Made by a program: the position numbers and the translations under genes. The notes below the pieces were generated by a model that was not told the origin of the DNA, ran no database searches, and saw nothing but the letters and a program-made list of their open reading frames with translations. 34,658 nucleotides of DNA, taken from Promethearchaeota archaeon (GTDB lineage: Archaea > Asgardarchaeota > Lokiarchaeia > Sigyniarchaeales > SOKP01). The stretch is from contig JBHLNS010000036.1 of assembly GCA_048941285.1 (NCBI GenBank), positions 1 through 34,658 on the forward strand, in the 5' to 3' direction. Positions 3,215-31,000 of the stretch are shown here, in pieces; within the stretch, counting starts at the first letter, position 1; every line of letters begins with the position of its first letter.

Positions 3215-3769
3215 ATGAGCCAAAATTTTCGAAAATTCATTAGTCGAGTCGGTGAACAATCTGAGTTTAAACCACTTAAAAACCAACTGCTTAATTATCT
3301 AAAAAAAGAAAGCGAAAGTAAATATAAGAATTACCCTCGACTTTTAGAATTGATGCAGAATTATTGGCCTGAGTACAAAGAACGTTCTCGCATTTCTCAT
3401 CTCTTAAAGGATCATCATGAAGAGATTTTCACTTTTTATTTAAACACTTTCTTCCATTTTAGAAAGAGAGGGTTATCTTTTTCAGATCCTGAAGCTCCAA
3501 CTCCCGTTGATTTTAAATTAATCTTCAAATATCATTATAATGACAAAGAAGTAGAAGCCATTGAAGATATTATGAAACAGCTGAATATTAGTGGGAGTAC
3601 CGAATCTATTCTGAAAAGAATTTTCATATTTACAATAAGCTCCTTCGGTTTTATGGTTGAGCAAATATTTGAGAGACCCTTTGCTTTCCAATTTTTCGAT
3701 ATCTCCGCAAATGCTCTTCCTAATAATGAATGGGAAATAGTAGCAATAATTTCAGGTAGAGAGCAATAA
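3215..3769 (+). CDS. Hypothetical protein (184 aa)
   Basis: ATG-initiated ORF filling the gap between neighbours, with normal composition and no recognised motif. Confidence 0.75.
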   Translation: MSQNFRKFISRVGEQSEFKPLKNQLLNYLKKESESKYKNYPRLLELMQNYWPEYKERSRISHLLKDHHEEIFTFYLNTFFHFRKRGLSFSDPEAPTPVDFKLIFKYHYNDKEVEAIEDIMKQLNISGSTESILKRIFIFTISSFGFMVEQIFERPFAFQFFDISANALPNNEWEIVAIISGREQ

Positions 3770-3773
3770 TTAT

Positions 3774-4199
3774 TCATTTATCTTTTGTAAGAAAAGAGCT
3801 TAGATCCATCATATCATCTCCTCGTTTTACCTGTATTTTACTTCTTATCCCCTTCACTTTTCGTTCTAAGTATATGATTGCATCAAGAGGTATTTGCCTT
3901 GGAACACCCCCTCTATTTCTAATTATTGCTAACAAATAATCAATATTCTGTATGACATCTGGGCTTATCAGTTCATTATGTATGGCTTGATATACATACT
4001 GTTCATTATTCTTAAGATGAATTAAATGATTGTAAGCATCTGGAGATAATACAACTTGTAATACATAATCCACTTTTTCAGAAACAGAAACACTTCGTTC
4101 TTGAGCTACTTCATTTCTTCTTTTAGCTTCCATTATTGCCTTCATTTTTTTCATACGAATTTTTTCTAGCTCATGCTGATCTTGATCTTTTTCACTCAT
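3774..4199 (-). CDS. PDCD5-family (dsDNA-binding) protein
   Basis: N-terminal ELEKIRxKKM, then 'LQVVLSPDAYNHL' resembling the PDCD5 'L..IL.PEAR.RL' motif. Divergent member. Confidence 0.6.
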   Translation of the reverse strand: MSEKDQDQHELEKIRMKKMKAIMEAKRRNEVAQERSVSVSEKVDYVLQVVLSPDAYNHLIHLKNNEQYVYQAIHNELISPDVIQNIDYLLAIIRNRGGVPRQIPLDAIIYLERKVKGIRSKIQVKRGDDMMDLSSFLTKDK

Positions 4200-6913: not shown

Positions 6914-7435
6914 TTGGTGATTATCATCAGAGAAGAAACAGACTATACTGAGGCAATTGAAGCTTATAAAAACGATCCTCTTGTCATTTTAGAACCGTGG
7001 GGTAGAAGTATTGATCATTTGAGGCTTACCATCATTGGAAAAAAAGGAACTCCTTATGCAGATGGGAAATTTGTTTTTGAAATAAAATTTCCTGAAAACT
7101 ACCCTTTCGCACCTCCTTATGCTTATGCGGTTACTTTAATGTGGCACCCTAATATTGATTCTTCAATTCCACCAGGAAAGCTGAATATTTGTTTAGACTT
7201 AATTAATCCAGATCTTGTGGGTAAAGTAGATGCCAGTACAGGAGCTTCAGGCTGGACTCCAAGTAAAACTCTTACTAATATTATTGAGGCTTTAAAAGGT
7301 ATGATGCATGTTGAGCCTCCTTTCTTTAATCCTGGAGATCCATTAAACCATGAAGCAGGAGAACAGTATTTTAGAGCTCAAAAAAAGTTCGAAGCAAAAG
7401 CAGCTGCTTGGACTAAGAAATATGGGATGGATTAA
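6914..7435 (+). CDS. Ubiquitin-conjugating enzyme E2 (UBC fold)
   Basis: GTPYxxGxF, FPENYPFAPP, MWHPNI, catalytic Cys (NICLD), W-x-P, and PxDPLNxEA. The exact start is uncertain (TTG 6914, GTG 6917 or ATC 6926). Confidence 0.93.
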   Translation: MVIIIREETDYTEAIEAYKNDPLVILEPWGRSIDHLRLTIIGKKGTPYADGKFVFEIKFPENYPFAPPYAYAVTLMWHPNIDSSIPPGKLNICLDLINPDLVGKVDASTGASGWTPSKTLTNIIEALKGMMHVEPPFFNPGDPLNHEAGEQYFRAQKKFEAKAAAWTKKYGMD

Positions 7436-7525: not shown

Positions 7526-8143
7526 ATGAATATTCCATTTAAAGACATAAAGGTTGTAATTTTTGATTTAGATGGGACAATAATTAATTTAAAAGCAAAT
7601 TGGATGGATTTGAGAGATATCTTAGTTGATGTCTATAGAGAATATTTTAATGAAGATTGTAATATTGAAAGAATATCAACCTGTCTCAATGAAGTTGTTA
7701 AAAAAAATAATGAGACAATTTTACAGGACTTTTTTAATATTATTCGAAATTTTGAATTAAAAAACATAAAAGATACTGAATTTATTGAAGAAACTATTTT
7801 TTTTATTAATAATAAAAATTTATTTGGTCTAAAAGAGGAAACGAAATTTGCCATCCTTTCTCTTAATACTAGAAATACTATATTAAAAACCTTAGAACTT
7901 GCAAATCTATCTAATAAAATAGATTTTATTGTAGGAAGAGAAGATGTGAGAGGATGGAAACCAGCTCCGGAAGGACTTTTAAAAGTTCAAAATCATTTCA
8001 ATGTACTCAAAAAAGAAATGATCTTTTTTGGAGACTTAGAGAATGACATATTAACTGGGAAGAATGCAGGTATTCAAGCATATTACATAGATGATTTAAT
8101 AAAAGTAGTGAAGAAAAAAATGAAGATTAAAGAATATTTTTAA
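7526..8143 (+). CDS. HAD-superfamily hydrolase (phosphoglycolate phosphatase-like, subfamily IA)
   Basis: Motifs FDLDGT, LSLN, KPAPEG and GDxxND...GKNAG. Confidence 0.88.
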   Translation: MNIPFKDIKVVIFDLDGTIINLKANWMDLRDILVDVYREYFNEDCNIERISTCLNEVVKKNNETILQDFFNIIRNFELKNIKDTEFIEETIFFINNKNLFGLKEETKFAILSLNTRNTILKTLELANLSNKIDFIVGREDVRGWKPAPEGLLKVQNHFNVLKKEMIFFGDLENDILTGKNAGIQAYYIDDLIKVVKKKMKIKEYF

Positions 8144-8158
8144 AGTATTTATAAAACC

Positions 8159-9751
8159 TTACATAAAAGCAATGACAACATTATATTTCTTGATTTCTGA
8201 TTCTGCTAAAGCTTTTCCTAGAGGAGTTAAGCTTACTATATCATTACTTTTAATTTTTAGTGTGGTTAATTTTATATTAGGATCTTTTAGCGATGGCATA
8301 TATGGATTCCAATAGATTTCTTTAGTCATGGGGTTTGTAATCATCCATAATTCAGGATTTAATTCATATCCCGTTATTTTCATTGCTTTAAAAATATAAT
8401 TTACGTCTGCATCAAACGGCACCACAATTTGTACATTCTCTTCTCCTTCAATTTTACCACAAGCAAGGCAATCGTCTCTTTTTATTATATTTATATGATC
8501 AAATTGGCCATAAATTCCATTGTAATTAACATAAGGAGGATCCATTGGAGCACCAATATTTCTACCATTAACTCTAAATAAAAGTTTTAATGCCTCTTGA
8601 GATTGGATGCTAGCAATAACAGAGCTTACTGTTTGTATTGCGGCGATTTTATTTCCGAGAATATTTTCCATTTCTTCAAATTTGTAGTCTGGTCCGAAGG
8701 TTTCATAAATATTTTGTTTCCACTCCTTAATTTCTTCTTCGGTCAATGATTCTCTTTTTTCTTCCGATATATTTTCATTAAAGATACGTTCTCTCAATTT
8801 TTCTAATTCTATTTGTGCTAATTCTTTCATTTTGAGTACTTCGTCATTTAAATTAAGATCCGGTTTATGACCATATTTCTTTTCAAAATCTACTTCAGCT
8901 TTTATAACACAATGATTTCGATTACGTGGTAAACCTTTTAAGGTGCATGCTGCAACAAGCTTATCATCAGCGGGAGGTACCGGGACTAAACATCTATAAC
9001 ATGGAGTTTGATCTAGTAATTCAGGAGCATATTTCCAATCAAAAACCAATTCAATTTCCTTCCGAAACCTTTCAATCAGAGGTGTTATACTTTCTGCCTT
9101 AATATTTTCAATTTGCTCTTCTAATTCTTCAATTTTTTTTTGAGCTCTAAAGTAATCTGGGTATTCCCTTTCTGTTATTTCCCAAAGCCTTGCTTCAACT
9201 AGGTTATCAATTTCTTTTTCTTTATTTTTATAACGTAATCCAGAACCCTCGGGAATTATGATTTGGCAATGTCCTTCAAAACCCACGGTGCCAGCTTCAA
9301 CGAGTGGGATTTTTAACCTGAGACATATTTTATTTAAGTCCAGTCTAGCGTTAAAATTATCTAAAGCAGCGACCATGACATCCGATTCTTTGTACACAGA
9401 GATAGGTAATTTTTGAAGTTTTTCAAAATAAAAATCTACTTTGAGATATGGATTCATCTCCTTCAATCTTTCTGCTGCTACTTCTGCTTTCGGACGGCCT
9501 TCATCGCCCTGTCTAAATAACATTTGTCGTGACAAATTTGATGTTTCAATAGTGTCTAGATCAACAAGAATTAATCTTCCAATTCCCATAAGTGCGAAAT
9601 CTTTAGCTATTTCGCAACCCAAAGCACCTATACCAATTATCATAATAGTTCCTTTGTCTACAACCTCTTGGTCCCACCCATCAATCAATTGTTGCCGGGC
9701 ATACATTCGTGATTTAACAATATCCTCAGTTTTTTCAGTCATATTAATCAT
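8159..9751 (-). CDS. Ubiquitin/Ubl-activating enzyme E1 (ThiF/MoeB adenylation domain, catalytic-Cys segment, probable C-terminal ubiquitin-fold domain); Uba3/Uba2-like
   Basis: YARQ, GIGALGCE, DLDTIETSNLSRQ, LDNFNAR, zinc pairs CYRC and CLAC, and the eukaryote-type catalytic motif ACTLKGLPRNRNHCV. Confidence 0.9.
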   Translation of the reverse strand: MINMTEKTEDIVKSRMYARQQLIDGWDQEVVDKGTIMIIGIGALGCEIAKDFALMGIGRLILVDLDTIETSNLSRQMLFRQGDEGRPKAEVAAERLKEMNPYLKVDFYFEKLQKLPISVYKESDVMVAALDNFNARLDLNKICLRLKIPLVEAGTVGFEGHCQIIIPEGSGLRYKNKEKEIDNLVEARLWEITEREYPDYFRAQKKIEELEEQIENIKAESITPLIERFRKEIELVFDWKYAPELLDQTPCYRCLVPVPPADDKLVAACTLKGLPRNRNHCVIKAEVDFEKKYGHKPDLNLNDEVLKMKELAQIELEKLRERIFNENISEEKRESLTEEEIKEWKQNIYETFGPDYKFEEMENILGNKIAAIQTVSSVIASIQSQEALKLLFRVNGRNIGAPMDPPYVNYNGIYGQFDHINIIKRDDCLACGKIEGEENVQIVVPFDADVNYIFKAMKITGYELNPELWMITNPMTKEIYWNPYMPSLKDPNIKLTTLKIKSNDIVSLTPLGKALAESEIKKYNVVIAFM

Positions 9752-9889: not shown

Positions 9890-12800
9890 TCACTTTTTCT
9901 TCTTTTCAGCAGTGTCTTTAATCAATTTTTTAAGACTATCAACTTTTTCTCTCTCTTTGGCTTCCTCTAATTTTTGTTGAAACTGCGTTTTCTCATCTTC
10001 CTTTTTTGTTATCTCCTCTTTTAATTCTTGCTTAAATTTTATAAGATTCGTCATTTCTTTACGAAATTCTCTTGCTTTAGCCTTTACCTCTTTCTTTTGC
10101 TCTGATTCTGCTAATTTTTGTTCTTGTCTTCTTTCTTCAATTAAACTTATTATACTATCCGCTAATTCACTAACTTCTCCAATAGTCTCTTTTAACTCGA
10201 ATTCTTCCTTTTCTCTGCGCTCTTTCTCCAAAAATCTCTGTTCTTCTAATTGTTCTTGGATAGTTTGGATTCTCAATTCTTCATTAATAACTTTATCTTC
10301 TAATTTTTTAGTATTTTTAATTTCAGTTTCGATATATTTTATTTCTTCATCCCATCCAATTTCTTGGAACTTAGAGATAGCTGAATTGAAAATTTCGTAT
10401 GCTCTATCAAAATCATGGTATGCCGCCCATTTCTTCCCTTCATCTATAAGTTTTAATCCATCATCTCTTATCTTTTCCGCTTGTTGTCGTTTAATAACTA
10501 TATCTCTATATTGTTTTTCTTGTGCTGCTTTCATTCTCTCTTGCTCCATTCTTCTTTTTTTCACTTCTTCTTGAAATATCGCGTACTCATTTTCCCGTTG
10601 TATGCGTGCTTGCTCCTCTAATCGTCTCTTTTCAAGAAAATTAACTTGTTCTTTTTGCAAATCTCTAATTAAATTGTCTAAATTCTTTATTTCAGGTTCC
10701 CAACCAATATTTTCTGCTAAAATATGTCTTGCTTGAACATACAATGAAATTGCCTCATTATAATTAGGAATATGGTGTTTCAAAGACTTGCTAGCTTCTT
10801 CCAATAGAGAATATGCTGACTCTCTTACACTCATTTGTTCTTGAATTCTCTTTTCTCGTTCTTGAAGTGCTAATTGTTGAGCTTTCTTTTTCTCTCTTTC
10901 TTGTCTCCTTCTTTCCTCAATGAGCATAGATAATGCTCTTTCTTCTTCTAACTTTTCTAATTCTTTCTTAACTTCTAAATTTTCTAATTCAGTTTTTTGA
11001 TCTTTCAATCTATTAATTTTAAATATCATGTTGTTAATCGAATCAGTTGGAAACTGTAATTCATTTAAGATCATTCCTGCTCTTCTATAACATACAAGTG
11101 CGTTATCATAATTTTGTTCTTTAAGAAATTTTTCACCATCATCTAAAGTCTTGAATGCTTGTTCTTTTCTCTCTTCTAATCTTGATCTTAATTGTTCTCT
11201 CTCAAGTATTTTCAAATCCTTTTGCTTTAATCGTTCCTGTTCAAGCCTTGAATTTTCTGCAACTTTTTGTTGATATTCCCATTCTTCTCGCTCTTTTTGT
11301 AATTTTAACTCTAAATCCTTTTGCTTTTGTAGGTGGTATTCTCTTTTTTTCTCCTGAACTTTTAACACTAATTCTCTGATAGAATCCGTTGGAAATGCAA
11401 TTTCATTTAATATTAATTCAGCAGTATGGTAATATTCGAGTGCTTTATCATATTGTAGTTGATTCATATATATCTCTGCTTTTTCAAGCAGATTGAATGC
11501 TTCTTCTTTTCTCTTTTCCATATAGGCATAAAATTCTTTTTGATTTTCAATTTCTTTTTGTTTAGCTTTTAATCTAATTTCATTTACCTTTATACTATTC
11601 GCTATTTGCTTTTGGAATTTATGTTCCTCTTGAGCTTGTTTAAGTTGTGCCTCTAAGTTCTTTTGCTTTGCAATCCAATCCTCTTTTGTTTTTTCTTGTA
11701 TTTTATGAATCATTTCTCTAACCGAGTTAGTGGGAAACCCAATTTCATTCAATATTAATTCTGCTTTTCTATATCTTTCAATTGCTTGATCATATTCCCC
11801 TCGATTAAAATAACTTTCGGCCTCATTTAAAATATCAAATGCTTCTGTTTTACGAGTTTCTATTAATTGTTTTAATTTTTCTTGTTTTTGGATTTGAATC
11901 TTTTTAGTCCTAAGTCTTTCTTGTTCTCGTTGCATATACTCAGAAATTTTTTTCTGGAAATGTTCTTCTTCAGATTTTCTTTGCTTTAATGATTCAATTT
12001 CAAGTTCCTTCTTTCTTTCCATATCTCTTTTTCTAACTTCAATTACTTTTATAGTATCTTTAATTAACCGTAAATAATCACTTTCCCATCCAATTTCAGT
12101 TAATAAATTCGTAGCATTTTGATAATTCTTTAGTGCCTCATTAAAATTTTTTTGATGAAGTAGATTATACCCCGTATCAATGAATTTGAAAGCTTCTTTC
12201 TCTTTTTCTAAATATTGCCTAGTGAGTTGTTTTTCCCGCTCAAATCTTTCTCGTTCTTCTAGTGCTTTAATTCTTTCGGTCTCCCTCAGAATTCTAACTC
12301 TTTCCATAAACTCGTAGTTCTCTTTTTCCTTTTCTATTTCTTCACTGATAGATTTCTGTTTTATTAAATCATTTTCTCTTTTTTTTTCTTCGATATTTTT
12401 TATTGCTTTATTAATGGTTGGAATTTCTTCGATCCATTGAATTTGAGCAAAAATATTTGCAACATCATGATATCGTTCAATTGCATCATCAAATTTGCCT
12501 AAAGAAATATAATTTTGAGCTTCTTCCAATATATCAAATGCTTCCTCTTTCCTTTTTTCCAGATATGAAAGCTCTTTTTCTTTCTCTCTAAGAATAATTT
12601 CTTTTCTCTTAATTTCTTCACGTTGTGATTTCATTTCTTTAATTAGTTTTTCTTGAAAGTATCTCTCTTGTTTTTCTTTTTCTATTGAGAGCTGTAATTC
12701 TTGTTGTTTTCTAATTTCCGCTTCACGTTTTTTATCTTCAACTGCAATAATTGAATTTTGAATCAACTCTATTTCTTCATCCCACTGAATATTTCTAAAA

Positions 12801-15800
12801 ATATCTATTGCTTCATGATATAATTCGATTGCTTGATCATAGTTTCCTTGTTCAATTTGTTTTTGAGCTTCTTCCAGTATATTAAAAGCTTTTTCTTTTT
12901 CTTTTTCTTGGAACAACCTTAATTCTTCTTCTTTATTCAGTTTCTCTTGTTTTTCTCTCATTTTTTGTTCTTCAAATTCAATTTTCTTCAGAATCTGCTC
13001 TTGAAATAATGAGTCTTCTTGGTCTCTTCTTACTTTTTGTTCAAATTCTTTAAATTGACGTAGATCTTCTTCTCTCTTTTTCTCTTGAATTTTTGAAATC
13101 ATTTCTCTAATAGAACCGGTAGGGAAATTAATTTCATTTAAAATTAACTCCGCTTGAATGTAATTTTTAATTGATTTTTCATATTCGCCTTGATTTAATA
13201 GATTTTGTGCATTATCCATTATGCTAAAAGCTTCTGACTTGCGTTTTTCCATATGCTTAATTAAATCTTCTCTTTTTTGTATTTCAATTTTCTTTTCTTG
13301 AATTTTTTTCTGTTCTTGAAGCATGTACTCACTAATTCTTTTTTGAAATAAATCTTCCTCTTTTTGATGTTTCAAGGAGCTTTCAAATTCCTTTTGTTTT
13401 TCACTCTCTTTTTCTTTTTCCCGTTGTTTGATTGTCTGAATTGTATCATTTAATAGTCTTAAGTATCGATCTTCCCAGCCAATCTCCCTGAGAAGTTCAA
13501 TAGCTTTATTATAATTTGCAATAGCATTATTGAAATTTTCATTTTCAAAGAGTATGTCTCCACTTTCTATTAAATTAAACGCTTTTTGCTGTCTAGCCAA
13601 ATTTTGGGCAGAAAGTTGTTTTTGTTTTTCAAATACTTCTTTCTGTATCAATAGTTCTGATTTTTCTCTTTCCGCCTGATATCTTATTCGTTCAATAAAT
13701 GCTCTATCTTCAGTTTCTTTTCTAATTGCTTTTTGTAATTCTCTTTGTTTATTTAATTCATCTTGTCTTTTTTTATTCTCAATTGAAAATATTGCCTCTT
13801 GGATGATGGAAATTTCTTCAGTCCATTGAATCTGAGCAAATATATTTGCAATATTATAATAAGTTTGAAGGGCATCATCATATTTTTTTTGAGAAAGAAA
13901 ATCCTGAGCCTTTTCTAGCAAATTAAAAGCCTCTTGCTTCTTTTCCTCCCGATAAGCAAATTCTTTTTCCTTCTCTCTAAGAAAAATCTTCCTTTTTACT
14001 AAGTCCTGATGTTGAGCTTTCATTTCTTTTGCAATACGCTCTTGAAATGCTTTTTCTTGCTTCTCACGATCTAATTTAGCTTGAAATTTAATTTGATTTT
14101 GAATATCTTTTTCTCTTTTCACATTTTCAATTTCGATTATTGCATTTTGGATAAGATTGATTTCATTCTGCCATTGAGCATCAGCAAAAAATGTAATTGC
14201 GTATTGAAGTATTTCAATAGCTTCATCAAAATTCCCTTCTTTAACATTAATTTGGGATTCATCAAGTAACCTGAAACCTGCTTCTCTTTTTTCTTCACGG
14301 AATTTTGCCTCTTTTTCACGTTCCATTAATTCAACTTTCTTTTTCTTAAGTTGTTCACGTTCTTCCCGTAAATATTTAGAAATTTGCTTTTGAAACTCTT
14401 CATCTTTCTTTTGTCTAGCGATATTTTCTTTCAATTCTTTTTGTTTTCTTATATTTTGTTTTCTTTTTAGTTCTTCAACCTCTCTTATTGATTCTTCAAT
14501 CAAAGGTATTTCCTCAGCCCATTGAATTTCAGCAAAAATGTTTGCGGCATTTTGATAATTTAGGATAGTTTTATCATAATCACCTTTTTTTAAGAAATCT
14601 ATAGCGGAATCTAAGAAGTCAAATGCTTGATTTCTTTTTTGTTCAAACATTTTGATTTCTTCTTCACGATCTTTAATTACTATTTCTTTCTTTTTTAAGC
14701 GTTCACGCTCTTTATTTATTAGAGCTCCTATTTGCTTCTGGAATTCTAATTCATCCAGGTTTCTTTCTTCTAATTTCTTTTGATGCTCATATAGTTTTTT
14801 AAGTTGTGTCTGTTTAAGTATTTCCACATTAGAGATCGTGTTTTGAACCATTGACCTATATGGCTCCCATCCAGGACCTAGATCTTTAAGGATTGGTAAA
14901 GCTTTATGATATATATTTATAGCTTCCTCGAAGTTTTTATCCTTTAGAATTTCATCTGCTTTATCTAATAACCTAAACAGGTCTTCTTCTTTATTTGCCT
15001 CGTCTCTCCTTTTTTCTTCATAATCTCTTCTTTTTTTGTCAAGTTCTTTTACAGATTCGATATAATGTTCCTTTTGTTTTTGTTGTATAGAATTTTGAAG
15101 TATTCGTAAATCTGATTGTCTTCGTTCTATTAATTGATTAGAAATCTTTTCTCTTTTTTGTTTGTTTTTTACAGTCTCAATTAAATTTGAAATTGGTTGA
15201 ATATATGAATCCCATTCTATTGATTTAAGAAGTTCAATTGCTTGATTGAATCTATCAATCGATTCTTCGTATCTATTTTCTCTCTCGAGCCTATTTCCGA
15301 TATCTATTAAATTAAAAGCTTTTAGTTGGAGCTCTTCCTCATACCTTTTCTTTGTCTCATATTTATCTAATCTTTCTTTTTTTATTTCTGCCTCTTTTTC
15401 TAGTATAACCTTCTGATCTTCAATATCCCTCCTTAAAGCTAATGGCTTCTCTATTTGATGGGTCTCAAATTCTAATTTATCTTGTTTAAGCTTTTCAATA
15501 ATAGTTTGAATTTTTTGAATTTGAACATTCCAACCAATAGATTTTAATAATTCAATTGCTCTTTCATAGTTCATTATTGCATTATCAAATCTCCTGTCTT
15601 TTTCAAATATTTTGGCAGCATCAATATGAGCGAATGCCTCATTCTGTGTATTCTCTTCATGTTGTTTTTTCTTTATAAACTTCTCCAAGACCTCTGATTT
15701 TTCAATACTACTTTTCTTCCCAAACATGCCAACAACTTGAGGTTTCTCATCTGAAACTGGCGTAGGAGCTTCTATTTTTAATTCGATTTCTGATTCTTGA

Positions 15801-16258
15801 TATTTTTGATCAATTTGTTGTTGTTCTGACTTCTTTACGAGTTTATTTATTTTAATTTTTAAATTCTCTAATTGGGTTTCAGACCAACCAGCTTCATTTA
15901 ATAATTTAATAGCAGATAAATATTGTTGAATAGCATCTTCAAAAAATCCGTCAAACTCTAGCTTTTTCGCTCCTTCTAAGATAATAAACGCTTGATCCTG
16001 TAATTGTTCAATTTGAGCTTTAGCTTGAGTTCGCTGATATAAAGTATCTTTTTTAAGAAAATCTCTTAATTCTCCTATTCTATCATAAATTTCTTGAATT
16101 CTATGCATCAAATATCCACTTTTTTTCAAAAAATCAGCAGCCTTTTGATAATTTGAAATTGCTTCTTGCAAGTTTTTCTCTTCTTCAAATTTTTGAGCAA
16201 TTTCTAGAAATTTTAAAGCTTCTTGTGCTAGTTCTTCTGGATTCTGCAATTTAAACAA
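9890..16258 (-). CDS. Giant (2122 aa) alpha-helical repeat protein: 18 MIT/TPR-like helical units separated by E/K/R/Q-rich helices
   Basis: Recurrent AFxxLxxAxxxxxxxxYDxAIxxYxxAxxILxEIx(W/F) with a ~116 aa period. No TM segment. TTG start. Confidence 0.85.
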   Translation of the reverse strand: MFKLQNPEELAQEALKFLEIAQKFEEEKNLQEAISNYQKAADFLKKSGYLMHRIQEIYDRIGELRDFLKKDTLYQRTQAKAQIEQLQDQAFIILEGAKKLEFDGFFEDAIQQYLSAIKLLNEAGWSETQLENLKIKINKLVKKSEQQQIDQKYQESEIELKIEAPTPVSDEKPQVVGMFGKKSSIEKSEVLEKFIKKKQHEENTQNEAFAHIDAAKIFEKDRRFDNAIMNYERAIELLKSIGWNVQIQKIQTIIEKLKQDKLEFETHQIEKPLALRRDIEDQKVILEKEAEIKKERLDKYETKKRYEEELQLKAFNLIDIGNRLERENRYEESIDRFNQAIELLKSIEWDSYIQPISNLIETVKNKQKREKISNQLIERRQSDLRILQNSIQQKQKEHYIESVKELDKKRRDYEEKRRDEANKEEDLFRLLDKADEILKDKNFEEAINIYHKALPILKDLGPGWEPYRSMVQNTISNVEILKQTQLKKLYEHQKKLEERNLDELEFQKQIGALINKERERLKKKEIVIKDREEEIKMFEQKRNQAFDFLDSAIDFLKKGDYDKTILNYQNAANIFAEIQWAEEIPLIEESIREVEELKRKQNIRKQKELKENIARQKKDEEFQKQISKYLREEREQLKKKKVELMEREKEAKFREEKREAGFRLLDESQINVKEGNFDEAIEILQYAITFFADAQWQNEINLIQNAIIEIENVKREKDIQNQIKFQAKLDREKQEKAFQERIAKEMKAQHQDLVKRKIFLREKEKEFAYREEKKQEAFNLLEKAQDFLSQKKYDDALQTYYNIANIFAQIQWTEEISIIQEAIFSIENKKRQDELNKQRELQKAIRKETEDRAFIERIRYQAEREKSELLIQKEVFEKQKQLSAQNLARQQKAFNLIESGDILFENENFNNAIANYNKAIELLREIGWEDRYLRLLNDTIQTIKQREKEKESEKQKEFESSLKHQKEEDLFQKRISEYMLQEQKKIQEKKIEIQKREDLIKHMEKRKSEAFSIMDNAQNLLNQGEYEKSIKNYIQAELILNEINFPTGSIREMISKIQEKKREEDLRQFKEFEQKVRRDQEDSLFQEQILKKIEFEEQKMREKQEKLNKEEELRLFQEKEKEKAFNILEEAQKQIEQGNYDQAIELYHEAIDIFRNIQWDEEIELIQNSIIAVEDKKREAEIRKQQELQLSIEKEKQERYFQEKLIKEMKSQREEIKRKEIILREKEKELSYLEKRKEEAFDILEEAQNYISLGKFDDAIERYHDVANIFAQIQWIEEIPTINKAIKNIEEKKRENDLIKQKSISEEIEKEKENYEFMERVRILRETERIKALEERERFEREKQLTRQYLEKEKEAFKFIDTGYNLLHQKNFNEALKNYQNATNLLTEIGWESDYLRLIKDTIKVIEVRKRDMERKKELEIESLKQRKSEEEHFQKKISEYMQREQERLRTKKIQIQKQEKLKQLIETRKTEAFDILNEAESYFNRGEYDQAIERYRKAELILNEIGFPTNSVREMIHKIQEKTKEDWIAKQKNLEAQLKQAQEEHKFQKQIANSIKVNEIRLKAKQKEIENQKEFYAYMEKRKEEAFNLLEKAEIYMNQLQYDKALEYYHTAELILNEIAFPTDSIRELVLKVQEKKREYHLQKQKDLELKLQKEREEWEYQQKVAENSRLEQERLKQKDLKILEREQLRSRLEERKEQAFKTLDDGEKFLKEQNYDNALVCYRRAGMILNELQFPTDSINNMIFKINRLKDQKTELENLEVKKELEKLEEERALSMLIEERRRQEREKKKAQQLALQEREKRIQEQMSVRESAYSLLEEASKSLKHHIPNYNEAISLYVQARHILAENIGWEPEIKNLDNLIRDLQKEQVNFLEKRRLEEQARIQRENEYAIFQEEVKKRRMEQERMKAAQEKQYRDIVIKRQQAEKIRDDGLKLIDEGKKWAAYHDFDRAYEIFNSAISKFQEIGWDEEIKYIETEIKNTKKLEDKVINEELRIQTIQEQLEEQRFLEKERREKEEFELKETIGEVSELADSIISLIEERRQEQKLAESEQKKEVKAKAREFRKEMTNLIKFKQELKEEITKKEDEKTQFQQKLEEAKEREKVDSLKKLIKDTAEKKKK
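11498..14275 (-). repeat. Intragenic tandem duplication of a four-unit block (1389 nt = 463 codons)
   Basis: Equivalent Phe codons of repeats 7, 11 and 15 start at 14275, 12886 and 11497, exactly 1389 nt apart. Unit types match pairwise (7/11, 8/12, 9/13, 10/14). Confidence 0.8.
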
Positions 16259-19311: not shown

Positions 19312-19833
19312 ATGTCAAGTTTCAAATTAAAAGTATTATTAACTGGAGCCGCAGCTGTTGGAAAAACAAGTCTTGTTCAACGTTTTATCAAGAATAGATT
19401 CCAAGCAAACTATAAATTGACTGTTGGTGTTGATATATTAACTAAGGATGTGGAATTTAGACCTGGAGAAATCGCTACCTTAAGCATTTGGGATATTGGG
19501 GGTCAGCAGCGTTTTGAATTTATCAGATCAACATTTTATAAAGGGGCAGCAGGAACATTATTAGTGTTTGATTTAACAAGAGAACAGACATACACAGAAA
19601 TTCGTAAGTGGCTTACTGAGATACGCCAATTTGCAGGTGATATTCCATTTGTTTTAATTGGAAACAAAGCAGATTTAATGGAAGATGTTGGGGTCGTCAT
19701 AGATCGAGATGAAGCTCGCTCTTTCGCAGAAAATGAGGGAAGTATCTATATTGAAACTTCTGCTAAAACGGGTATTAATGTTGATGAAGCTTTTACTGAA
19801 CTCACCCGTCGAATTATTGATTCTCGAGTATAA
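19312..19833 (+). CDS. Rab-like small GTPase
   Basis: G1 GAAAVGKTS, G2 TVGVD, G3 WDIGGQ, G4 NKAD, G5 ETSAK. RabF-like motifs FYKGA and LVFDLT. No C-terminal prenylation tail. Confidence 0.93.
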   Translation: MSSFKLKVLLTGAAAVGKTSLVQRFIKNRFQANYKLTVGVDILTKDVEFRPGEIATLSIWDIGGQQRFEFIRSTFYKGAAGTLLVFDLTREQTYTEIRKWLTEIRQFAGDIPFVLIGNKADLMEDVGVVIDRDEARSFAENEGSIYIETSAKTGINVDEAFTELTRRIIDSRV

Positions 19834-22656: not shown

Positions 22657-24552
22657 CTATTGTTGTAGATTTTTTAATAATTGTTCTAATTCTAATATTT
22701 TTTCATCGATTCTTTCATTATATTTATTAATTTCTTTCTTTTTTTCTTCAAGTTTATCTTTAGTAATTTGATTTTCTAATTCTTGCTTCTCCAGATCTGC
22801 ATCCATCTTAAATAAATTAGCTTTTCTTATTTTTAATTCTATTAATTCTCTTTTAATTTTTTCTACTTCTGTATTTTTGATAGTAGAAGGAGTTTGAGTA
22901 TTTACAAAATCATGAATCTCTCTCACCGGAATCGTATGATCTACAGCTTCTGCGTGTTCTATTCGGGTAGTAGATGTTGGAGATGATAGACTTTCTTCAA
23001 ATCCCACAAAATCTTTGATTTTTTTATTTAGAGTTTGACTTGGAGGAGTTTTTAAATTTATATTATTTATATTTTTAACATGACCATAAGCAGTTGTTTT
23101 CATTTTGTCTTTGGCATCTTTTGGGACAACCCCAATAGTCTTTGGTCTAATTTTCACCATAAAATCTTCAGGATTTAATTTTAAGACTTCTTTTTTAACT
23201 TCAACTTGAGATTCTAAAACTTTATCTTGATCATCTAATTTTTTACTTGGCTGAATCGACTGTTTAGATTCAACTGGTTCTGTCCTCTCTTTTAATTTCA
23301 AATTATCATCCACGACTTTTTTTTGCGAGATTTCTGATTGAGATCTTTCAGATGATAACGGCTGAGCAACTTCCATAGCTTTAATTGAAATTTTCGGTTT
23401 CATTTTAATTTCTTTTTCGATTGGTTCAATTACTTCAGAAGGTTTAGCTTCTTGAACACCAATTGTTTCTTTAGAAATTTCTGAATCTTGCTGAATTTGT
23501 TGAGGAATATCTGTTGCTTTTAACATCTCTATAATTTTCTGCGATTTTTCGAAGAATTCTTTTCCAAGAGAATCATCTCCTAATTCAATGCATAGGTAAC
23601 TAATTTTATCAAATAATAATGCTGCTTTTTCAAAATCAGCTGATTTTAATGCGATTGTAGCTTCTTCTATCAGTTTATCTCTTTCTAATAAAGGTTTTAA
23701 TAAAGGGGAAACCTCAGCACTCATTTCTAATATATCTGCAATGATTTTAATCATTTTATCTCGATTGCTAGGATCATTCGCTATCATTGAATATGCCTTT
23801 AAACCTAAAAAGTTTTCAATTTGTACTGGAGATAAAGCTCCTTTCAAATCTTGTTTATTCCCTATTATTGCTGTGTGAGCATGAGGTGCTTGTTCTTTTA
23901 TTAATTCTAAGAAAAACTTACTCTTATCAACATTTTCTAAAGTAGAATCTGTGACTAAAATAACTGCATCGCTGCCTTTAATGAAGTTATTCCAGAGATA
24001 ACTGAATTGTTCTTGTCCCGCAAAATCCCATAAATGAAAATGCAACTTTCCTATTTTCACGGTTGCAATATCACCTGTAATTGTAGGAATATGTTGTACT
24101 GGGATCTCTTCTGCTCTTATTAATTTTGTTATTGTTGTTTTACCAACTCCAGAAAATCCAACTAGTGAGATTTTTGGCCGAAGATTTTTATGGATTGAAT
24201 CTACAAATGGATCAAAAACCTCAAAAGTTTTTTTGTCATATCTATCATCTAGAATTTCTTCAAACAAATTAATAAAATCAGTTCTACATCTCAATAATTC
24301 CTTTTTTATATTTTCAAATTTATCTGTTAAGCCAGAAAGAAATAATATTATTAAATTCAAATCTTTTTTTGTTATATACGAGACCTTGAACTTATAATAA
24401 TCATAAGATTCAACTCTATCTTCCCTTCTGGTATCTTCATCTTTTATAATCTCTGAAACAAGATAATTTAAGACTTCTTGTTTAAGAGCTTTACCAAAAT
24501 GTCTATAATATAAGAGTTCATTCTCTTTATATATTAAAATTTGCCTTAGTAT
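22657..24552 (-). CDS. Longin-like domain + Arf-like small GTPase + helical (MIT/TPR-like) unit + low-complexity linker + C-terminal coiled coil (631 aa if started at ATA 24552)
   Basis: GFSGVGKT, HIPTI, LWDFAGQEQF, W-x-x-F, DST and GNKQD. The frame stays open 64 codons upstream of the track's TTG (24360): ILRQILIYKENELLYYRHFGK...YKFKVSYITKKDLNLIILFL. GGTGA lies 6 nt before the ATA. Confidence 0.85.
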   Translation of the reverse strand: MLRQILIYKENELLYYRHFGKALKQEVLNYLVSEIIKDEDTRREDRVESYDYYKFKVSYITKKDLNLIILFLSGLTDKFENIKKELLRCRTDFINLFEEILDDRYDKKTFEVFDPFVDSIHKNLRPKISLVGFSGVGKTTITKLIRAEEIPVQHIPTITGDIATVKIGKLHFHLWDFAGQEQFSYLWNNFIKGSDAVILVTDSTLENVDKSKFFLELIKEQAPHAHTAIIGNKQDLKGALSPVQIENFLGLKAYSMIANDPSNRDKMIKIIADILEMSAEVSPLLKPLLERDKLIEEATIALKSADFEKAALLFDKISYLCIELGDDSLGKEFFEKSQKIIEMLKATDIPQQIQQDSEISKETIGVQEAKPSEVIEPIEKEIKMKPKISIKAMEVAQPLSSERSQSEISQKKVVDDNLKLKERTEPVESKQSIQPSKKLDDQDKVLESQVEVKKEVLKLNPEDFMVKIRPKTIGVVPKDAKDKMKTTAYGHVKNINNINLKTPPSQTLNKKIKDFVGFEESLSSPTSTTRIEHAEAVDHTIPVREIHDFVNTQTPSTIKNTEVEKIKRELIELKIRKANLFKMDADLEKQELENQITKDKLEEKKKEINKYNERIDEKILELEQLLKNLQQ

Positions 24553-25051: not shown

Positions 25052-28000
25052 TTATTTTTCATCTGATTTTAAATTATAATAAACATCTTCAAGGATTTCA
25101 AGATATTCCATCAGGACTTTATTTGTCAATGATTTTTGCTCATATGAGGTCTTGATGACTTGTAAAAGATATTTTGGAAATATCAAATCTATATAAAAGT
25201 CAGATAATAACGCGTAATATTCATTATTCATTTCGTCTTGGAAAACAGCAATCAATTTATTTTCCCATAAAGCTTTTATAACTCCATACGGATCAGCAAC
25301 GCCTTTTACTTTTAGCTTTTCCAATTCTTGTCTTGAAACAATCGCACTTCTTAATAACCTTAGTGTTAAATGAACCTGAGGATTACTTAAAAGTGTAACA
25401 ATTTTTAAATTATCCTCATTAGATGGGATATAACTCTGAAAAAATTTCTTCACTATGTCTATATACTCTTTTTTAAATTGTGTTGGAAGTCCACGATTAA
25501 TAGGGTCTTCAATTATTTCTATAGGAGGAACCCTCAACATATAAACATCATTAATTAAAACAATTAATTCTGAGAGTAATCCTTTTACAGAAACTTGTTT
25601 TATGATCCCTTTCTTTAACAAATCGGATATGGTTGCTTCTAAATCAATAAACTTTTCGATATACTTATCTTTAAACCATATAACTAGTTCTGCTTTACTT
25701 ATCACACCTGCTTCTCTTAAATTATCTATAATCATTCTTTTTGCTTCATCTTGATATGTAAGTGCTAATATTTCTTCATCACTAAAAGATGGATATAATG
25801 ACAGGCGCTGGAAATAAGATGGCATAAGCATTTTAAATGAATCATCTTCAACATTTTCTATGAGACCCCGTAAAACATCAGCCATTCCTCCTTCATAAAG
25901 ATCTGGATCGTCTTCTAAATCTAAAATTAAAAGAAGATAATAACCTTGTTCAGGTCCAGTGTAATAAGAAATAATATTCAGAGGACCAACACTCAGAGTT
26001 ATTGTCCCTTTTTCTCCACTATATTCATGTGTACTATATATTTGCATACAAGTTTTTTCTGAAATTATAGTTTCTTCCGGATATTTCGCTAAAATCTCTG
26101 TTCCAACTCTCTCATTCCATTTCATCAATACTAATCCAACTGGTGTTAATTCATGAACTTTCGCAATATCACTAGATCTTTTGTGTAATTTTTCACTCTT
26201 CTTAATTTTCTCTACCTTAACATTTAGTATTTCTGCTAAAGAAAGATCAAGGTTATTCCATCTATGATTCACTCTCTCCACGATAAAGGCTTCTTTATTG
26301 CGGTATAATAAAGATTCGTCTACATCTTTGCCTTTTTTAATGCTTTTTTTCATTTCCCTTACTTTTCTTACGAAAGCAGGTATTTTAGCATAATGGTATA
26401 CTCTATATCCTACAATACTCCCAACTATAGCAAGTGCCGCAGATAAGATCAGTAAGAAATAAAATGTTGGAACTCCTGGAAAAATTTGTTCCATTTCAAC
26501 AACAATAATAATATCAAATTCTTGAGAAATATAATATAATTTTGTAATGTTAATGGTCCCTGTGAGTGTGTTTGATGTAAAAAAGGCATTTATATTATAT
26601 GTTGGAAAATTGCATATGTATGTACCATTTCCAATATGAGTAAAATTATAGAGATTTCCCTTTATTGTTAAAGTTATTGTAGCATCAAGCAACCAACTAT
26701 CACCTTTCGTAGGATCAGTTAGAATTATTTGTATTGGAACGGGATTGCCTTTTACTACACTCGTTTTCCTATTTTGAAAATTATGGCTTAAAATAGGTTC
26801 TCCAATCTCTCTTTTTTTAATGGTTAAAATAATCATCGCATTCTTACGGTCATAATTATCTTTTTCTAAAGCAATAATCAAGAAATATTCACCCAAAGCT
26901 CTTGATTCTGTGTTAAAATCTAAGATATAAGTGTTATCTCTAGCAGAAATTATATCTCCATAACCATTTTCAATTACGTTCCCTAGACGATCATAACGTT
27001 CCCACACATAATATTGAGTCTTTAAGTTGACAATTTTAGTCCCTCTGAGTGCATCAGTAAAGACTAAAGTGAAATTAACAGCATCCTGCACATAAACACT
27101 TTCAATCTTTCTGAAAAATTCTGAGGACTGATTTAGCAGTGTTAGGCGATTTAGAACGATTAAATCAAGATCTTTAGTGGTAATCTTATAATGCTCTTTA
27201 TCTATAGTGAATCTTACAGTATACTCATCAGCGTCAAGTAAAGAAGTATCGATTGTCTTTAGGTAATATTTTAAATCTGAATCATATTGAACTGGGCCAT
27301 AAATGGAAGGAGCTTCAACAATAGTATAAGTTAAAGAACCGATTATTTCATAAGATACTGTTCGTGAATATTGAATTGAAAGTAAAAGAATAAAATCGAC
27401 TGATAAGGAGGTTTCAATGACCGCATGTAAGAGTTGTGCTTTAGAGAATCCTGTAAGGGAAAATGTTCCCGTTCCTGAAGAATAATCCGAAATACTATAC
27501 TTTTGCCCTCCAATAGTAATGTTCATTGCTACTTCTGAAGGAAAGAAATAGTTTGATCCACTTTTTATGCTTTTAACCCATAATATAGATTCATCTTCCT
27601 TCCAACTACTCTCAGTTGCACTTATTTGAAGTGAACCTCCATTTGTAATCCCTCTTTCTGTTCTTGTGCAATTTAATGTTTCCAAAAATTGGTTCTTATA
27701 AAATCCTTGAATATATTCCACTTTGATAATAGCATTAAATATGATATTTGGATCACTCTCAACAGTAAATAAGAATTGATTGCCTATAGGATAGATAGTC
27801 CTGTCGTCTATACTTAAAGAGCCGGTTCCATCCGGATAGCCATAATCTAATAAATATGTGAAGCCTTCGTTTGTAGTAATGGAAATATTTGTTAAACTTG
27901 ACAAATCTACGATACTCCAATCAGAGCTATCATAACATTCAGAAATCTCAAAAGTTATATTACTGATTATCCATCCTTCCACTTCGGATAGAAGGGAAAT

Positions 28001-31000
28001 TTCACTACTAACATTAAATTTAGAATATTGTACATTTATTAAATCCCTGATAAAATATGCATCTGCGATAATATCAACAGTATTCTCAAATGTACCTCTG
28101 ATGATAAACTCAAAATTATTATCATTGGTGCGACTGGCTTGATTTAGATTCAAAGTGATTCCTGTCCACGTACCTTGAGTATAATCCCATCCACTGTTAT
28201 TGTAATTAAAAGTATAAACAAAAGTACCATAAGGATCTTCAATTGTAACATTAATATTAGTGATATCAGTATTCCAAGAAATATTATAGAGATTTAATAC
28301 TATTTTAGATAAATTCCAATGAGTTTCTAGGTCAGAAATCAAGAAATCAAAGTGATGATCGATACTTTGGAAGACAATGTTTTCTACAGTAAGCGTTTCA
28401 GAATTACTGCCATAAGAATTTAACGTCATATCTGCACTTTCCAACCAATATACTGATATGTCTGAATCATCATTGCTAGATTGATTTAATTCTAATTGAT
28501 TTTCCAAAATATTTAATTGAAGAATTCTATCTGAAGGAATAGTATATCCCGATTTATAAGCGGATATTATGATTATATACCTCTTTGCGCTAACAAGTTT
28601 TTTTGTATCAATTTCAACAAAATGCCTTCCTTCATTATCTTCTTCTAAGGAGAAAGCTCCTGATATTACAGTATTCCCCCCTAATAATAATGTATATCTC
28701 ATTGAGTCCGCATAAACAGGTCCTAAAAGAGATTCATACCCTGCTTCCACTTTACTCACATTAAATAGCGTCCGTAGCTTTAATAAAGTACCCCATTCAA
28801 TTTCAATATAATCCGTAGGATTTAATGATATCAGTTCTGTTTGGAATTTGCTTAAATCGATTAAAATTCTAAATTCTAAATTATCCTTGTTTGTGATTGT
28901 GAAACTTATATTATTGACTTCAGCGGGGCCTCCAACTGATTGATTGAAAAGTTTATTAACCCCAAAAAATTCAATTTGGAGTGAATAATCCCCCCCTATC
29001 CCTAAGGATGTTAACCACCTCAATGTTGCCTGCCCATTTATGTCAGTGGTTAGATTTGCAATACTTGGACCTAATGGATTGTTAAGAGTCAACTTAAGTT
29101 TCACTCCACTAACAGGCGTTATAGGAGCATTAATTGTTTGCACTGTAAATTCTACAGTGGTTAATTCTACTTGTACTTGAATGGTGGTATTAACAGTAGT
29201 AATGTCTCCTGAAGCAATATCAATTATAGGTGGATTATAACTTGGGTTTCTATAGTAGATAGTGTAATTATACGTGGAAGGAGGAGCATTAACCCACCAA
29301 AACTTAGTATGCCCTGATGAATCAATTATACACTTTTTAAGCTGGTGTGTGGCGTTACCTACGATTATCCATCCAGAATCAACAGGATCAAGATCAACAT
29401 CAATTACTTCAAAGAAATGAGTACTTACATCACAAATTATATCAATAGTTTGAAATGGTTGATCAACTATTATGGCTTGAGATGTAGAATTTACTATCTC
29501 GACAATCTCTCCAATACTTGAATGAATGGTTGCTGTGAAATTATATGCGCCTTCAAGAATGTTTGTAAAACTTACACTACCATCAGTACCGGTGATACCC
29601 TGTTCTATTAAATCAAAATGTTGATACATTGAAATAGTAACATTAGGAAGCAAATTACCATATAAATCTAATGCATTAATTGAAATATCTACTTCAAGAA
29701 GCGGTTTTGAATGTTTTTCATCACTTATACTGAAAAAAGTATTAGGGTCATATTGGTTGTAATATTCAGTTGTTAACCATCCCTCAGATCTATAATTATT
29801 GGATACACGAAATTCATCCAAATACCCCTTAAAGCAACCTGAAGATTCTCCAATATAAAATAAACTTGAATCTGTGACAAGAGGATATCCACCTATATTT
29901 GTTGAATTTGGATTTGTACCATTAATATAGCTTCGTAGATAAGTACCATCATAAGAATAGGTAATATAGGTCCATCGCTGACGAGTAATTTCTCTCGGAT
30001 TATAAACTGTACCACGAGTAACAAATCTGATATCCGGTTGAAAAGAACCCAGACCAGGACCATGATAACTACGATAAATACGCGCAAGGCTAATAGAAGA
30101 TGCTTTATAGAATACACGGGGCTCTCCAGCATTTAACCATTCTTGGTCAGTTGCGTAATTAGGGTAAATCCAAAATGAAAATGTAAATATATTATCTCCA
30201 TTAAAAATTTGAGATCCTTGATTGATAATTATTCTATTATCACCCGATCCTGTAAAATATCTCGCTCCATCTATAATACTTGTTCCAAAAAATTGAGTAC
30301 CATAAGGGGTTCCGTCATAATCATTTGAAGTTGAATCTTTAATATAGTCACCGGTTCCACTTGGTTCATTAAAATGCCAGACTGATTTATAATCTAGCCA
30401 TACTTCCGTTGGATTTTGACGAGAATTCATAGTAGAATTGCCATAATACATAAATATTTCAGTATCTTCTACCGTAGATAAAAAAGGGATGCAAACCCAT
30501 GCAACTAATCGGGCATGTGTTCCATTATAGGTTTGATCAAACAATTCTATTTGGTGATCTAACCATTGACCATCAGTTGAAAATGCTATGTCATCTCCAT
30601 CAGATTGCACATCAAAGCGAAGATCTGTATCGAAAATCGAGACCAAAAAGGGAAAGTTAACATGGCTGCCTATTCCATCAACTTTTGTGTGATCTATTGT
30701 AATTATTTTATAATAATCAAAATAATCTGCATTTGGAGTAATATCATTTACTATTTGTTCACTTCCTACTGAACCAAATGTACTAGGATCATTCTGGTTA
30801 TCATATTCTGTCCTTAACCAGGCATCTGATCGAATTGTCGATGAGATTTTAACCTCATCAATAATCGCATCAATAGGTCTAGCTCCCGTAGGACTATTTC
30901 CAATTGTAATTGGCCAATTATTTTCACGTAATGCTCCTGTTTTACTTTCTGTATAAACAGTATTTCCATCTAAAACAAGATTTATATTTGAGCCATCATA

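Follow-up and report, generated by a model that had tools for sequence, protein, structure and literature searches.

We describe here a giant gene found in a window of 34,658 nucleotides, the whole stretch of DNA analysed, which is positions 1 to 34,658 of contig JBHLNS010000036.1 (forward strand) in assembly GCA_048941285.1 of a Promethearchaeota archaeon placed in the Lokiarchaeia, order Sigyniarchaeales. The open reading frame (ORF) lies at 9890..16258 on the minus strand and has 2122 codons, with TTG as first codon and the stop codon at 9890-9892. Because the first three residues are missing in 50 of the 61 orthologues of the same length (the set of 2100-2130 residues defined below), translation probably begins at the TTG at 16249, three codons inside the TTG at 16258. 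The protein is composed of 17% E, 14% K, 9.5% I, 9% L, 9% Q and 7% R, and contains just 17 Pro and one Cys. No transmembrane segment was found, the highest 19-residue Kyte-Doolittle mean over the whole protein being 0.74, nor was a signal peptide seen by the hydropathy check, and Pfam and NCBIfam return no enzyme family, all in line with a first-pass annotation made from the DNA letters, which had noted neither a transmembrane segment nor an enzyme domain. The Pfam families found are of the MIT/TPR kind only, plus a PUB match slightly under its cut-off, and NCBIfam gives a single row far below threshold (34.8 bits against a cut-off of 750). Tandem Repeats Finder detects no DNA-level repeat with a period above 27 bp in the gene, which rules out an assembly artefact or a recent DNA-level expansion of repeats.

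How is such a long protein organised? A unit profile seeded with 11 obvious units was run over the 2122 residues. It finds 18 units with E values of 8.6e-28 to 1.5e-10 per unit, 7 of them outside the seed, while the two remaining of its 20 rows are noise (E 0.31 and 0.38). From unit 1 to unit 10 the starts are 76, 118, 106, 113, 118, 116, 116, 116 and 117 residues apart, and from unit 10 to unit 18 they are 114, 116, 116, 117, 114, 114, 114 and 119 residues apart. In the turn that follows the second helix, 13 units carry W, 4 (units 10, 14, 15 and 16) carry FPT and unit 1 carries Y. The entire module of 116 residues can be aligned between units, linker included; the differences in module length (114, 116, 117) are confined to the turn between helices B and C, and the remainder, with the long helix, aligns free of gaps. 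The order within a core module is helix A, a turn, a helix B of 17 residues, the W or FPT turn, and a long helix made of helix C and the linker. Pro and Gly are restricted to the turns of the units, which we call beads, and to an N-terminal hinge. Of the candidates scored in a search of the protein database, 232 were related to the giant at E <= 0.001, and the best 120 were examined together with the query. Throughout these 121 proteins, successive TPR motifs are separated by 106-119 residues, or by 76 in the head, and stand next to each other nowhere but in the head. The 18 units at about 116 residues, their W or FPT turns and their isolation, unlike the units of a TPR solenoid, had all been pointed out in the first-pass annotation and hold under the profile; in the AlphaFold2 model described below each unit is capped by a long helix.

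Along the minus strand the gene can be divided into several parts. The head (residues 9-145, 15824..16234) consists of beads 1 and 2, a tandem pair 76 residues apart. It is followed by a hinge (residues 146-200, 15659..15823), which contains Pro and Gly, is poorly conserved and carries insertions and deletions (indels). Within this variable stretch, a motif of the type P-x-V-V-G-x-F-G is conserved at residues ~173-180 (15719-15742, minus strand); it is kept in the representatives with 14, 16, 18 and 20 units and absent from the one with 25 units, and it may be a short linear binding motif. Beads 3-5 (14642..15658) are less regularly spaced (106, 113, 118), and the linker after bead 3 (residues 245-289) is a second spot that tolerates indels. 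Then comes the regular core, 11 modules of 114-117 residues that comprise units 6-16 (residues 540-1809, 10832..14641). Units 17-18 (residues 1810-1990, 10289..10831) are divergent from the other units and the most conserved between orthologues. The C-terminal helical tail (residues 1991-2122, 9893..10288), about 130 residues long, is conserved in all length classes compared and ends in an amphipathic stretch followed by lysines. Overall the ends of the protein are better conserved than the shaft, the best conserved parts being beads 1-2, units 17-18 and the tail.

Is the spacing of the beads kept in evolution? To this question the set of same-length orthologues, 61 proteins of 2100-2130 residues including the query, gives a clear answer. 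They share 51-79% identity with the query, the lowest pairwise identity is 47%, and their alignment has only 2130 columns. Indels occur at the start, at residues 148-166 and 245-289, in one column at 439 and in the last three residues. From residue 440 to residue 2119, that is over 1,680 residues, there is not a single indel in the 61 proteins, and the orthologous fragments of residues 880-1300 are exactly 421 residues long in all 29 of 29 loci. The residue-exact spacing pattern is the same in all 121 proteins, whatever their length. Relatives differ in length by whole modules. Counting full-length proteins only, the remainder of the 121 being fragments or partial records, there are 23 proteins with 14 units (1636-1663 residues), one with 16 units (1891), 62 with 18 units (2108-2127, the query counted twice), 17 with 20 units (2326-2349) and 6 with 25 units (2927). 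In 7 of the 8 closest pairs, the ratio of nonsynonymous to synonymous substitution rates (dN/dS, Nei-Gojobori) lies at 0.13-0.26 for the beads and at 0.19-0.25 for the linkers; the exception is the closest pair of the eight, where changes are few and the ratios are 0.52 (beads) and 0.30 (linkers). By these sequence measures the giant gene is real and under purifying selection. In-frame stops, either one TAA or two TGA, lie inside the match in four orthologues (L027, which is G207:C18, and G178:C265, G238:C53 and G244:C252), and they may be sequencing errors or broken copies.

That a continuous helix should be wholly free of indels would be understandable if successive beads had to be held at a given axial distance and also at a given rotational phase, and a constraint of both kinds suggests register with something periodic, which would be another copy of the protein or a partner polymer. 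In our view, 1,680 residues without an indel, together with change of length by whole modules, form a rare and clear signature of geometric constraint, and such a signature points to a ruler, a tether or a lattice element.

How did the number of modules change? The unit pairs 7/11, 8/12, 9/13 and 10/14 are 45, 48, 46 and 42% identical, and other pairs are mostly 10-25% identical. Because units 7-10 (12905..14293, minus strand) and units 11-14 (11516..12904, minus strand) are alike in this way and the 14-unit relatives hold one 4-module block only, the 18-unit form arose through an old duplication of this block.

The relatives themselves are narrowly distributed. Where they are named, the best 120 of the 232 are called 'hypothetical protein' or 'TPR repeat protein' and come from metagenome bins of Promethearchaeota (Asgard), some labelled Lokiarchaeota. 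A whole-protein search of 400 genomes of the phylum at E <= 1e-20, a stricter first look whose counts are a floor, found the family in at least 122 genomes; by family, there were 116 of 134 in f1, 1 of 1 in f2, 3 of 14 in f3 and 1 of 4 in f4, with no match among 246 genomes elsewhere. The profile of the 116-residue module at E <= 1e-15 found it in 114 of 134 genomes of f1, 1 of 1 of f2, 6 of 14 of f3 and 0 of 250 elsewhere. As judged by these searches, the family is confined to one archaeal order. Homologues in the sister families have 854-1086 residues with 6-7 detected modules, and other giant paralogues, of 1768-2551 residues, exist in these families as well. Searched against 1.84 billion representative proteins, the module profile returned 1177 at E <= 1e-3, of which 328 reach E <= 1e-10 and 95 reach E <= 1e-30. 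Among the 142 newly returned of the best 150, the most frequent module spacings are 116 (179 cases), 114 (54) and 57 (50), followed by 127 (47), 113 (42) and 76 (36). The proteins with a spacing of 57 are a different TPR family with short linkers. The spacing of 127 was considered as the 116-residue module plus three helical turns, and this was rejected: the 127-type is another subtype, in which a Pro-rich segment replaces helix A. A second giant with beads and linkers, of 1872 residues, is encoded on another contig of the same genome (C25:16104-21719, plus strand, equal to L058:10005-15623). Its gene stands two genes downstream from a gene of the Ras family and one gene past that of a proteasome alpha subunit, and the modules at its centre seem to be of the 127-residue subtype. 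The family was not found by full-text searches of the literature on Asgard or Lokiarchaeal MIT, ESCRT, TPR, coiled-coil or three-helix-bundle rods. It is also absent from the passages on MIT, TPR, coiled coil and repeats of the ESCRT-diversity survey PMC11188069, whose supplements could list it under an asCOG.

What shape would the regular part of the protein take? A fragment of four beads and three linkers (residues 880-1300, 12359..13621, minus strand) was modelled by AlphaFold2 with an alignment of 30 orthologous fragments. The mean predicted local distance difference test score (pLDDT) is 85.5, the five models lie at 83-85, and the predicted template modelling score (pTM) is 0.34. The helices of the fragment are 2-26, 30-46, 51-143, 147-163, 169-257, 261-277, 281-374, 377-393 and 397-420. 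In other words, a single helix of 89-94 residues (93, 89 and 94) runs from helix C of one bead through the linker into helix A of the following bead, and helix B, a back-helix of 17 residues, is the sole closure of each bundle. The rod imagined in the first-pass annotation agrees with this multi-unit model, in which an extended rod with linkers as continuous helices is predicted in place of a compact solenoid, and no characterised family claims the protein. In a wide search with the exhaustive structure aligner VIA over 48,161 representative solved chains, no chain matches the four-bead model in more than a single bead; the root-mean-square deviations (rmsd) of its global alignments to solved chains are 48-154 Å, and values of this size are to be expected of so extended a shape. 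Foldseek with the 421-residue model gave no match at E <= 1e-3. Taking (about 92 minus 17) x 1.5 Å, the rise of a module would be about 11 nm, and the whole protein would measure about 0.2 µm if straight.

Because the spacing of the bundles is exact to the residue across relatives, we suggest that the giant is an uncharacterised scaffold or tether of defined length. More fully, our preferred reading, to which we give a probability of about 0.6, is a cytoplasmic, all-alpha-helical modular rod made of MIT-like three-helix knots. Each module of about 116 residues would be one helix of about 90 residues, whose last 20-25 or so residues serve as helix A of a small bundle; the 17-residue helix B would run back, and the next long helix would begin as helix C, so that the beads are rigidly spliced into a continuous helical axis. 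The molecule would then consist of a head of tandem beads, a flexible hinge with a short motif, a regular shaft, and a conserved tail with a basic amphipathic end. Docking surfaces specific to each bead would be held at fixed axial and rotational register, and the shaft would probably pair laterally with another helix, either one of its own or one of a partner, via a hydrophobic stripe of the linkers. In this scheme the continuity of the helix and the fold of the bead are predictions of the models; the length of the rod, its lateral pairing, the docking role and the cellular function are what we infer.

Several points weigh against the rod. The extended shape comes from one AlphaFold2 fragment model with a pTM of 0.34 and a shallow alignment of 30 sequences, and AlphaFold often renders charged sequence as long single helices. 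The figures of about 11 nm per module and 0.2 µm are arithmetic and not measurements. Strong hydrophobics make up about 25% of the linkers, so that a helix which stays alone and exposed is unlikely to be the final state, and for the same reason a folded-back or bundled form is conceivable. The structural matches of the bead (Z of about 9-10, Foldseek E >= 0.03) are of a kind that any small helical bundle can reach. Besides, no partner of the giant protein was identified, and no expression data were found, the listing of sequencing runs being without RNA.

What are the linkers made of, and are they only spacers? They are 52-55 residues long, with 52-69% E/K/R/D/Q, and free of Pro; in the regular linkers Gly is absent as well. 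Opposite-charge pairs at i to i+3 or i+4 number 0.17-0.42 per residue. The first-pass annotation had described them as helices rich in E/K/R/Q, which the composition and the continuous helix of the model bear out, and had likened them to single alpha-helix spacers, which is not supported. Like ER/K single alpha-helix spacers, they are predicted to be long, Pro-free helices with many such charge pairs; in contrast to them, they contain 22-30% strong hydrophobics (I/L/M/F/V/W/Y) and a conserved stripe. This level is far above that of classical single alpha-helices and near the 2-in-7 of coiled coils. Moreover, spacers may be constrained in composition only, while the linkers of the giant are conserved to the residue in sequence and length. 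The mean frequency of the major residue across orthologues is 0.73 in beads and 0.66 in linkers, and at polar positions it is 0.66 and 0.67, respectively. A mid-linker motif of the type aromatic-Q-x-x-I, followed by a series of L/I/V, is common to the modules. For the stripe, 11 modules were averaged over the 61 orthologues and the residues were placed on an ideal helix, with offsets counted relative to the start of the next unit. Conserved hydrophobics at -34, -30, -26, -19 and -12 all point, to within ±40°, in the direction of the Phe that is invariant in the following helix A, and earlier ones (-47 and -43) share a face with the helix C that comes before; the spacings are 4, 4, 7 and 7 with gaps, and the face shifts in the middle of the linker. 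Because the conserved hydrophobics cluster around this Phe, each linker bears a conserved one-sided hydrophobic stripe that its own chain leaves uncovered in the model. To judge from their composition and conservation, the linkers are not passive spacers and are unlikely to be classical single alpha-helices; they form a structural part of the protein. By eye, the spacing of the mid-linker hydrophobic patch is like that of a helix of the MIT-interacting motif (MIM) kind that could dock on the beads of another chain, a likeness which we take as a lead only.

Might the giant then be a self-assembling cytoskeletal element? In such an element two or more chains would pair by their linker stripes, in register or with a stagger of half a module, into a two-chain rod, bundle or lattice. 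This explanation overlaps with the rod of defined length, and differs in making the formation of a polymer or lattice the function itself, in the manner of spectrin or of bacterial proteins rich in coiled coils. The hydrophobic content close to that of coiled coils suits it, as does a single-faced stripe on the half of the linker that precedes a bead. A register between chains at multiple sites would require exactly the residue-exact, indel-free spacing observed here, and polar positions of the linkers are conserved as much as those of the beads. However, the stripe is sparse, with about one hydrophobic per pair of turns and with breaks, and shows no clean heptad pattern, and no filament-forming family was matched in Pfam, NCBIfam or the solved chains. 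We regard self-assembly as possible, though clearly less probable than the rod acting as scaffold or tether.

The next question is the nature of the bead. The whole protein matches Pfam MIT (PF04212) with E 1.6e-30 and 105.4 bits against a cut-off of 30, in 6 stretches. The best stretch covers profile positions 2-36 of 66, the part that is also TPR-like, while the Vps4 of the same genome covers positions 2-66. TPR rows are over the cut-off too (TPR_12 3.2e-21, TPR_2 6.1e-21, TPR_1 1.9e-18, and TPR_11), and SHNi-TPR is also reported. A model of a single bead built by AlphaFold2 with 108 bead sequences has a pLDDT of 95.4 and a pTM of 0.79, with helices 2-20, 24-40 and 45-79. The top Foldseek rows for it are almost all MIT domains (VPS4B, VPS4A, NRBF2, MITD1, katanin p60N and archaeal Vps4), but none reaches E <= 1e-3, the best being 0.03. 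Against the MIT domain of NRBF2 the bead has a template modelling score of 0.75, an rmsd of 2.0 over 79 columns and a Z of 9.9; VIA gives a Z of 9.4 for katanin p60N and 8.9 for the archaeal Vps4 MIT. These rows share similar Z with end-units of TPR proteins and with designed three-helix proteins, and a Z under about 13 can mean a mere common helical arrangement. With the sequence profile of the bead, consensus TPR proteins score best, via a stretch of 23 residues across the turn between helices A and B; the Vps4A MIT matches over about 50 residues at E 0.002, and the genome's own Vps4 MIT with 83.6% probability over 31 columns, in the TPR-like part. In the ESM Atlas, residues 540-1240 have no cluster at 0.9 and generic TPR or hypothetical clusters at 0.76-0.87. 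The first-pass annotation had called the unit MIT/TPR-like; the three-helix bundle and the MIT domains as its best matches support this, but the fold match is not decisive. The most fitting description of the bead is a single TPR motif with a third helix as its cap, which is also what an MIT domain is. On sequence and model, homology to MIT domains is plausible, and any equivalence in function would be conjectural.

Do the beads bind the same thing? The positions common to the 18 units are core positions (A, F, L, A, aromatic, A, I, Y, A, L, I, W, I, I). Polar bead positions agree in only 0.2-0.4 of the units and are 0.5-0.85 conserved between orthologues. In the most distant same-length orthologue, 14 of the 18 units pair best with the unit of the same index, and the exceptions are members of the duplicated block. 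Since the polar surface differs between units yet is conserved between orthologues, each bead has its own conserved identity, and the beads are probably not 18 copies of one binding site. Contacts specific to each bead fit these data better than a homomultivalent binder of ESCRT-III. This bears on another explanation, also offered in the first-pass annotation, a multivalent MIT array, in which each bead binds the C-terminal MIM helices of ESCRT-III and the protein bundles or measures ESCRT-III polymers. The strong Pfam MIT score, the MIT domains (that of archaeal Vps4 among them) as best fold matches and the profile matches to the MIT of Vps4A and of the genome's own Vps4 would favour such an array, and the genome has two ESCRT-III genes whose C-terminal leucines at i, i+4 and i+7 form a pattern that may resemble MIM1. 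However, only the TPR-like part of MIT is matched, the bead profile gives consensus TPR proteins much better scores, the 18 beads have no polar surface position in common, and the ESCRT cluster of the genome (Vps36-like, ESCRT-II, Vps4, Snf7 and another Ras) is on a different contig from the giant gene. An ESCRT-III-binding array is thus unlikely.

The neighbours of the giant gene may also tell something about its role. An E1-like gene of the ThiF family (530 residues, 8159..9751, minus strand) lies 138 bp downstream on the same strand, and its position is conserved; ThiF matches residues 22-428 against a profile of 238 positions, so that the protein has a large insertion. Further on are a HAD hydrolase (7526..8143, plus strand) and an E2 (UQ_con) gene (6914..7435, plus strand), the latter also part of the conserved neighbourhood, and the E1/HAD/E2 trio stays beside the giant gene across the family. 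Upstream are a RACo-type protein and a Ras-family small GTPase (173 residues, 19312..19833, plus strand), the neighbour that persists furthest across relatives. Within the same genus, where flanks of 1.5 kb were covered, E1 is found in 28 of 29 loci and RACo in 27 of 29. In eight other genera, E1 is downstream on the same strand in 16 of 16 loci, the Ras-family GTPase is found upstream in 14 of 16 and E2 is present in 10 of 16. In seven loci from three other genera (L038, L039, L040, L041, L047, L052 and L053) the gap between the giant gene and E1 is about 1.4-1.9 kb as against 138 bp, and it may hold an extra gene. Around the shorter homologue of family f2, RACo, E1, HAD and E2 are all still close by, E1 being encoded on the opposite strand. 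The 19.9-kb stretches of two f3 genomes have lost E1 and E2, and a Ras-family gene of 68-72% identity lies 3-7 kb upstream of the shorter homologue.

Such a neighbourhood could suit a tether controlled by a small GTPase, like golgins or EEA1, in which the basic amphipathic C-terminus sits on a membrane, the head and the hinge motif capture a target, and the Ras-family GTPase and/or the ubiquitin-like E1/E2 pair act as regulators. The GTPase is 82-97% identical across genera where the giant protein is 35-50% identical, it is kept in the two sister-family genomes that have lost the link to E1/E2, and the paralogue on the other contig also has a Ras-family gene two genes upstream; the constancy of the E1-like gene, the strong conservation of head and tail and the lysine-rich amphipathic end of the tail agree with the same idea. 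Yet aspartokinase, PHP and an Arf-like gene are syntenic too across genera, so the adjacency may simply be inherited, and small GTPases are very numerous in genomes of the Asgard type. No GTPase-binding or membrane-binding domain was recognised in the protein, which has no transmembrane segment, and the membrane-binding reading of the tail was made by eye. We therefore consider GTPase-controlled tethering improbable. Least probable of all is that the protein is not a rod, its helices turning back and its beads and linkers packing together as a compact or superhelical solenoid of the TPR kind, an ordinary platform for interaction: the strong TPR matches, the low pTM of the fragment and the need to bury the hydrophobics of the linkers somewhere speak for it, but all five models have a pLDDT of 83-85 and the kept one has unbroken helices of about 90 residues, the regular linkers offer no obvious site for folding back as they lack Pro and Gly, and TPR motifs are never adjacent outside the head.

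Other genes of the window should be mentioned. A second giant ORF of 2661 residues (25052-33037, minus strand) contains three Laminin_G_3 and three DUF2341 stretches; it is probably a large surface or secreted protein and has no relation to the rod. An ORF of 567 residues (22657-24360, minus strand) has an Arf/Roc-type GTPase domain at residues 59-189, and its ~380 further residues match no family. Two small ORFs, of 184 residues (3215-3769, plus strand) and 141 residues (3774-4199, minus strand), have no Pfam family and are syntenic in other genera with 61-68% identity; the second has a match far below threshold to a family of DNA-binding proteins. Finally, an ORF of 482 residues (33189-34637, minus strand) has neither a Pfam nor an NCBIfam match.

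How does the preferred rod, a scaffold or tether of defined length, compare with known proteins? As modelled, its bead is a small asymmetric three-helix bundle resembling the MIT domains (PF04212) of Vps4/CdvC, NRBF2/Atg38, the katanin p60 N-domain, MITD1 and calpain-7. It differs from them in that its sequence matches only the first two helices and that no surface groove is conserved across beads; moreover, MIT domains occur singly or paired at the ends of proteins, whereas here 14-25 beads would be spliced into a continuous helix. The third helix of the NRBF2 MIT also runs on into a long helix. With TPR (PF00515, PF07719, PF13424) the bead has in common helices A and B with the canonical TPR signature, and TPRs of the NASP type, of the interrupted SHNi-TPR/NASP kind, are among its fold matches. 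TPR solenoids, however, stack three or more adjacent motifs, while the motifs of the giant are lone, capped by a third helix and 116 residues apart. Spectrin, alpha-actinin and plakins are built of three-helix repeats of about 106 residues, the last helix of one repeat being continuous with the first of the next. Rods of this type resemble the predicted giant in the continuous helix between bundles, in being long and in changing length by whole repeats, and a plakin fragment of plectin is among the structure matches of the bead (Z 8.7). The difference is that the helices of spectrin span the whole repeat and its bundles abut, whereas in the model the bundle helices of the giant have 17-25 residues with about 45-50 residues of helix between bundles; no spectrin family is among the Pfam matches of the giant up to E = 1. 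An extended helical shaft with distinct ends is also seen in golgins, EEA1 and Ebh of Staphylococcus, the last being a string of three-helix bundles. To none of these three is there a sequence or domain relationship, although a small-GTPase gene is the persistent neighbour of the giant; Ebh is an extracellular adhesin, unlike the giant with no signal peptide or transmembrane segment by hydropathy.

Then what would such a rod mean for the cells that carry it? No relatives closer to eukaryotes than the Asgard archaea are known, and the architecture of Asgard cells, with protrusions, an actin cytoskeleton, ESCRT and small GTPases, is intensely studied. The giant family is large, strongly conserved and among the longest proteins of the Asgard genomes concerned. 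A bolder idea, which we hold to be a long shot, is that it is a molecular ruler or tether of Lokiarchaeia-type Asgards, controlled by the persistently neighbouring Ras-family GTPase, whose 116-residue module is matched to a periodic partner and whose length sets a cellular dimension. The periodic partner would be the protein's own neighbours in a lattice, or a filament of the cytoskeleton or of membrane remodelling. The idea can be tested on small recombinant fragments and in cultivable relatives with shorter homologues, which have 991-1086 residues in a cultivated member of the order. The number of modules, 14-25 across genera and 6-7 in the sister families, would then set, for example, the calibre or reach of protrusions, and, if this were true, the giant would be a prokaryotic forerunner, in logic, of the length-defining scaffolds of spectrin or golgin type.

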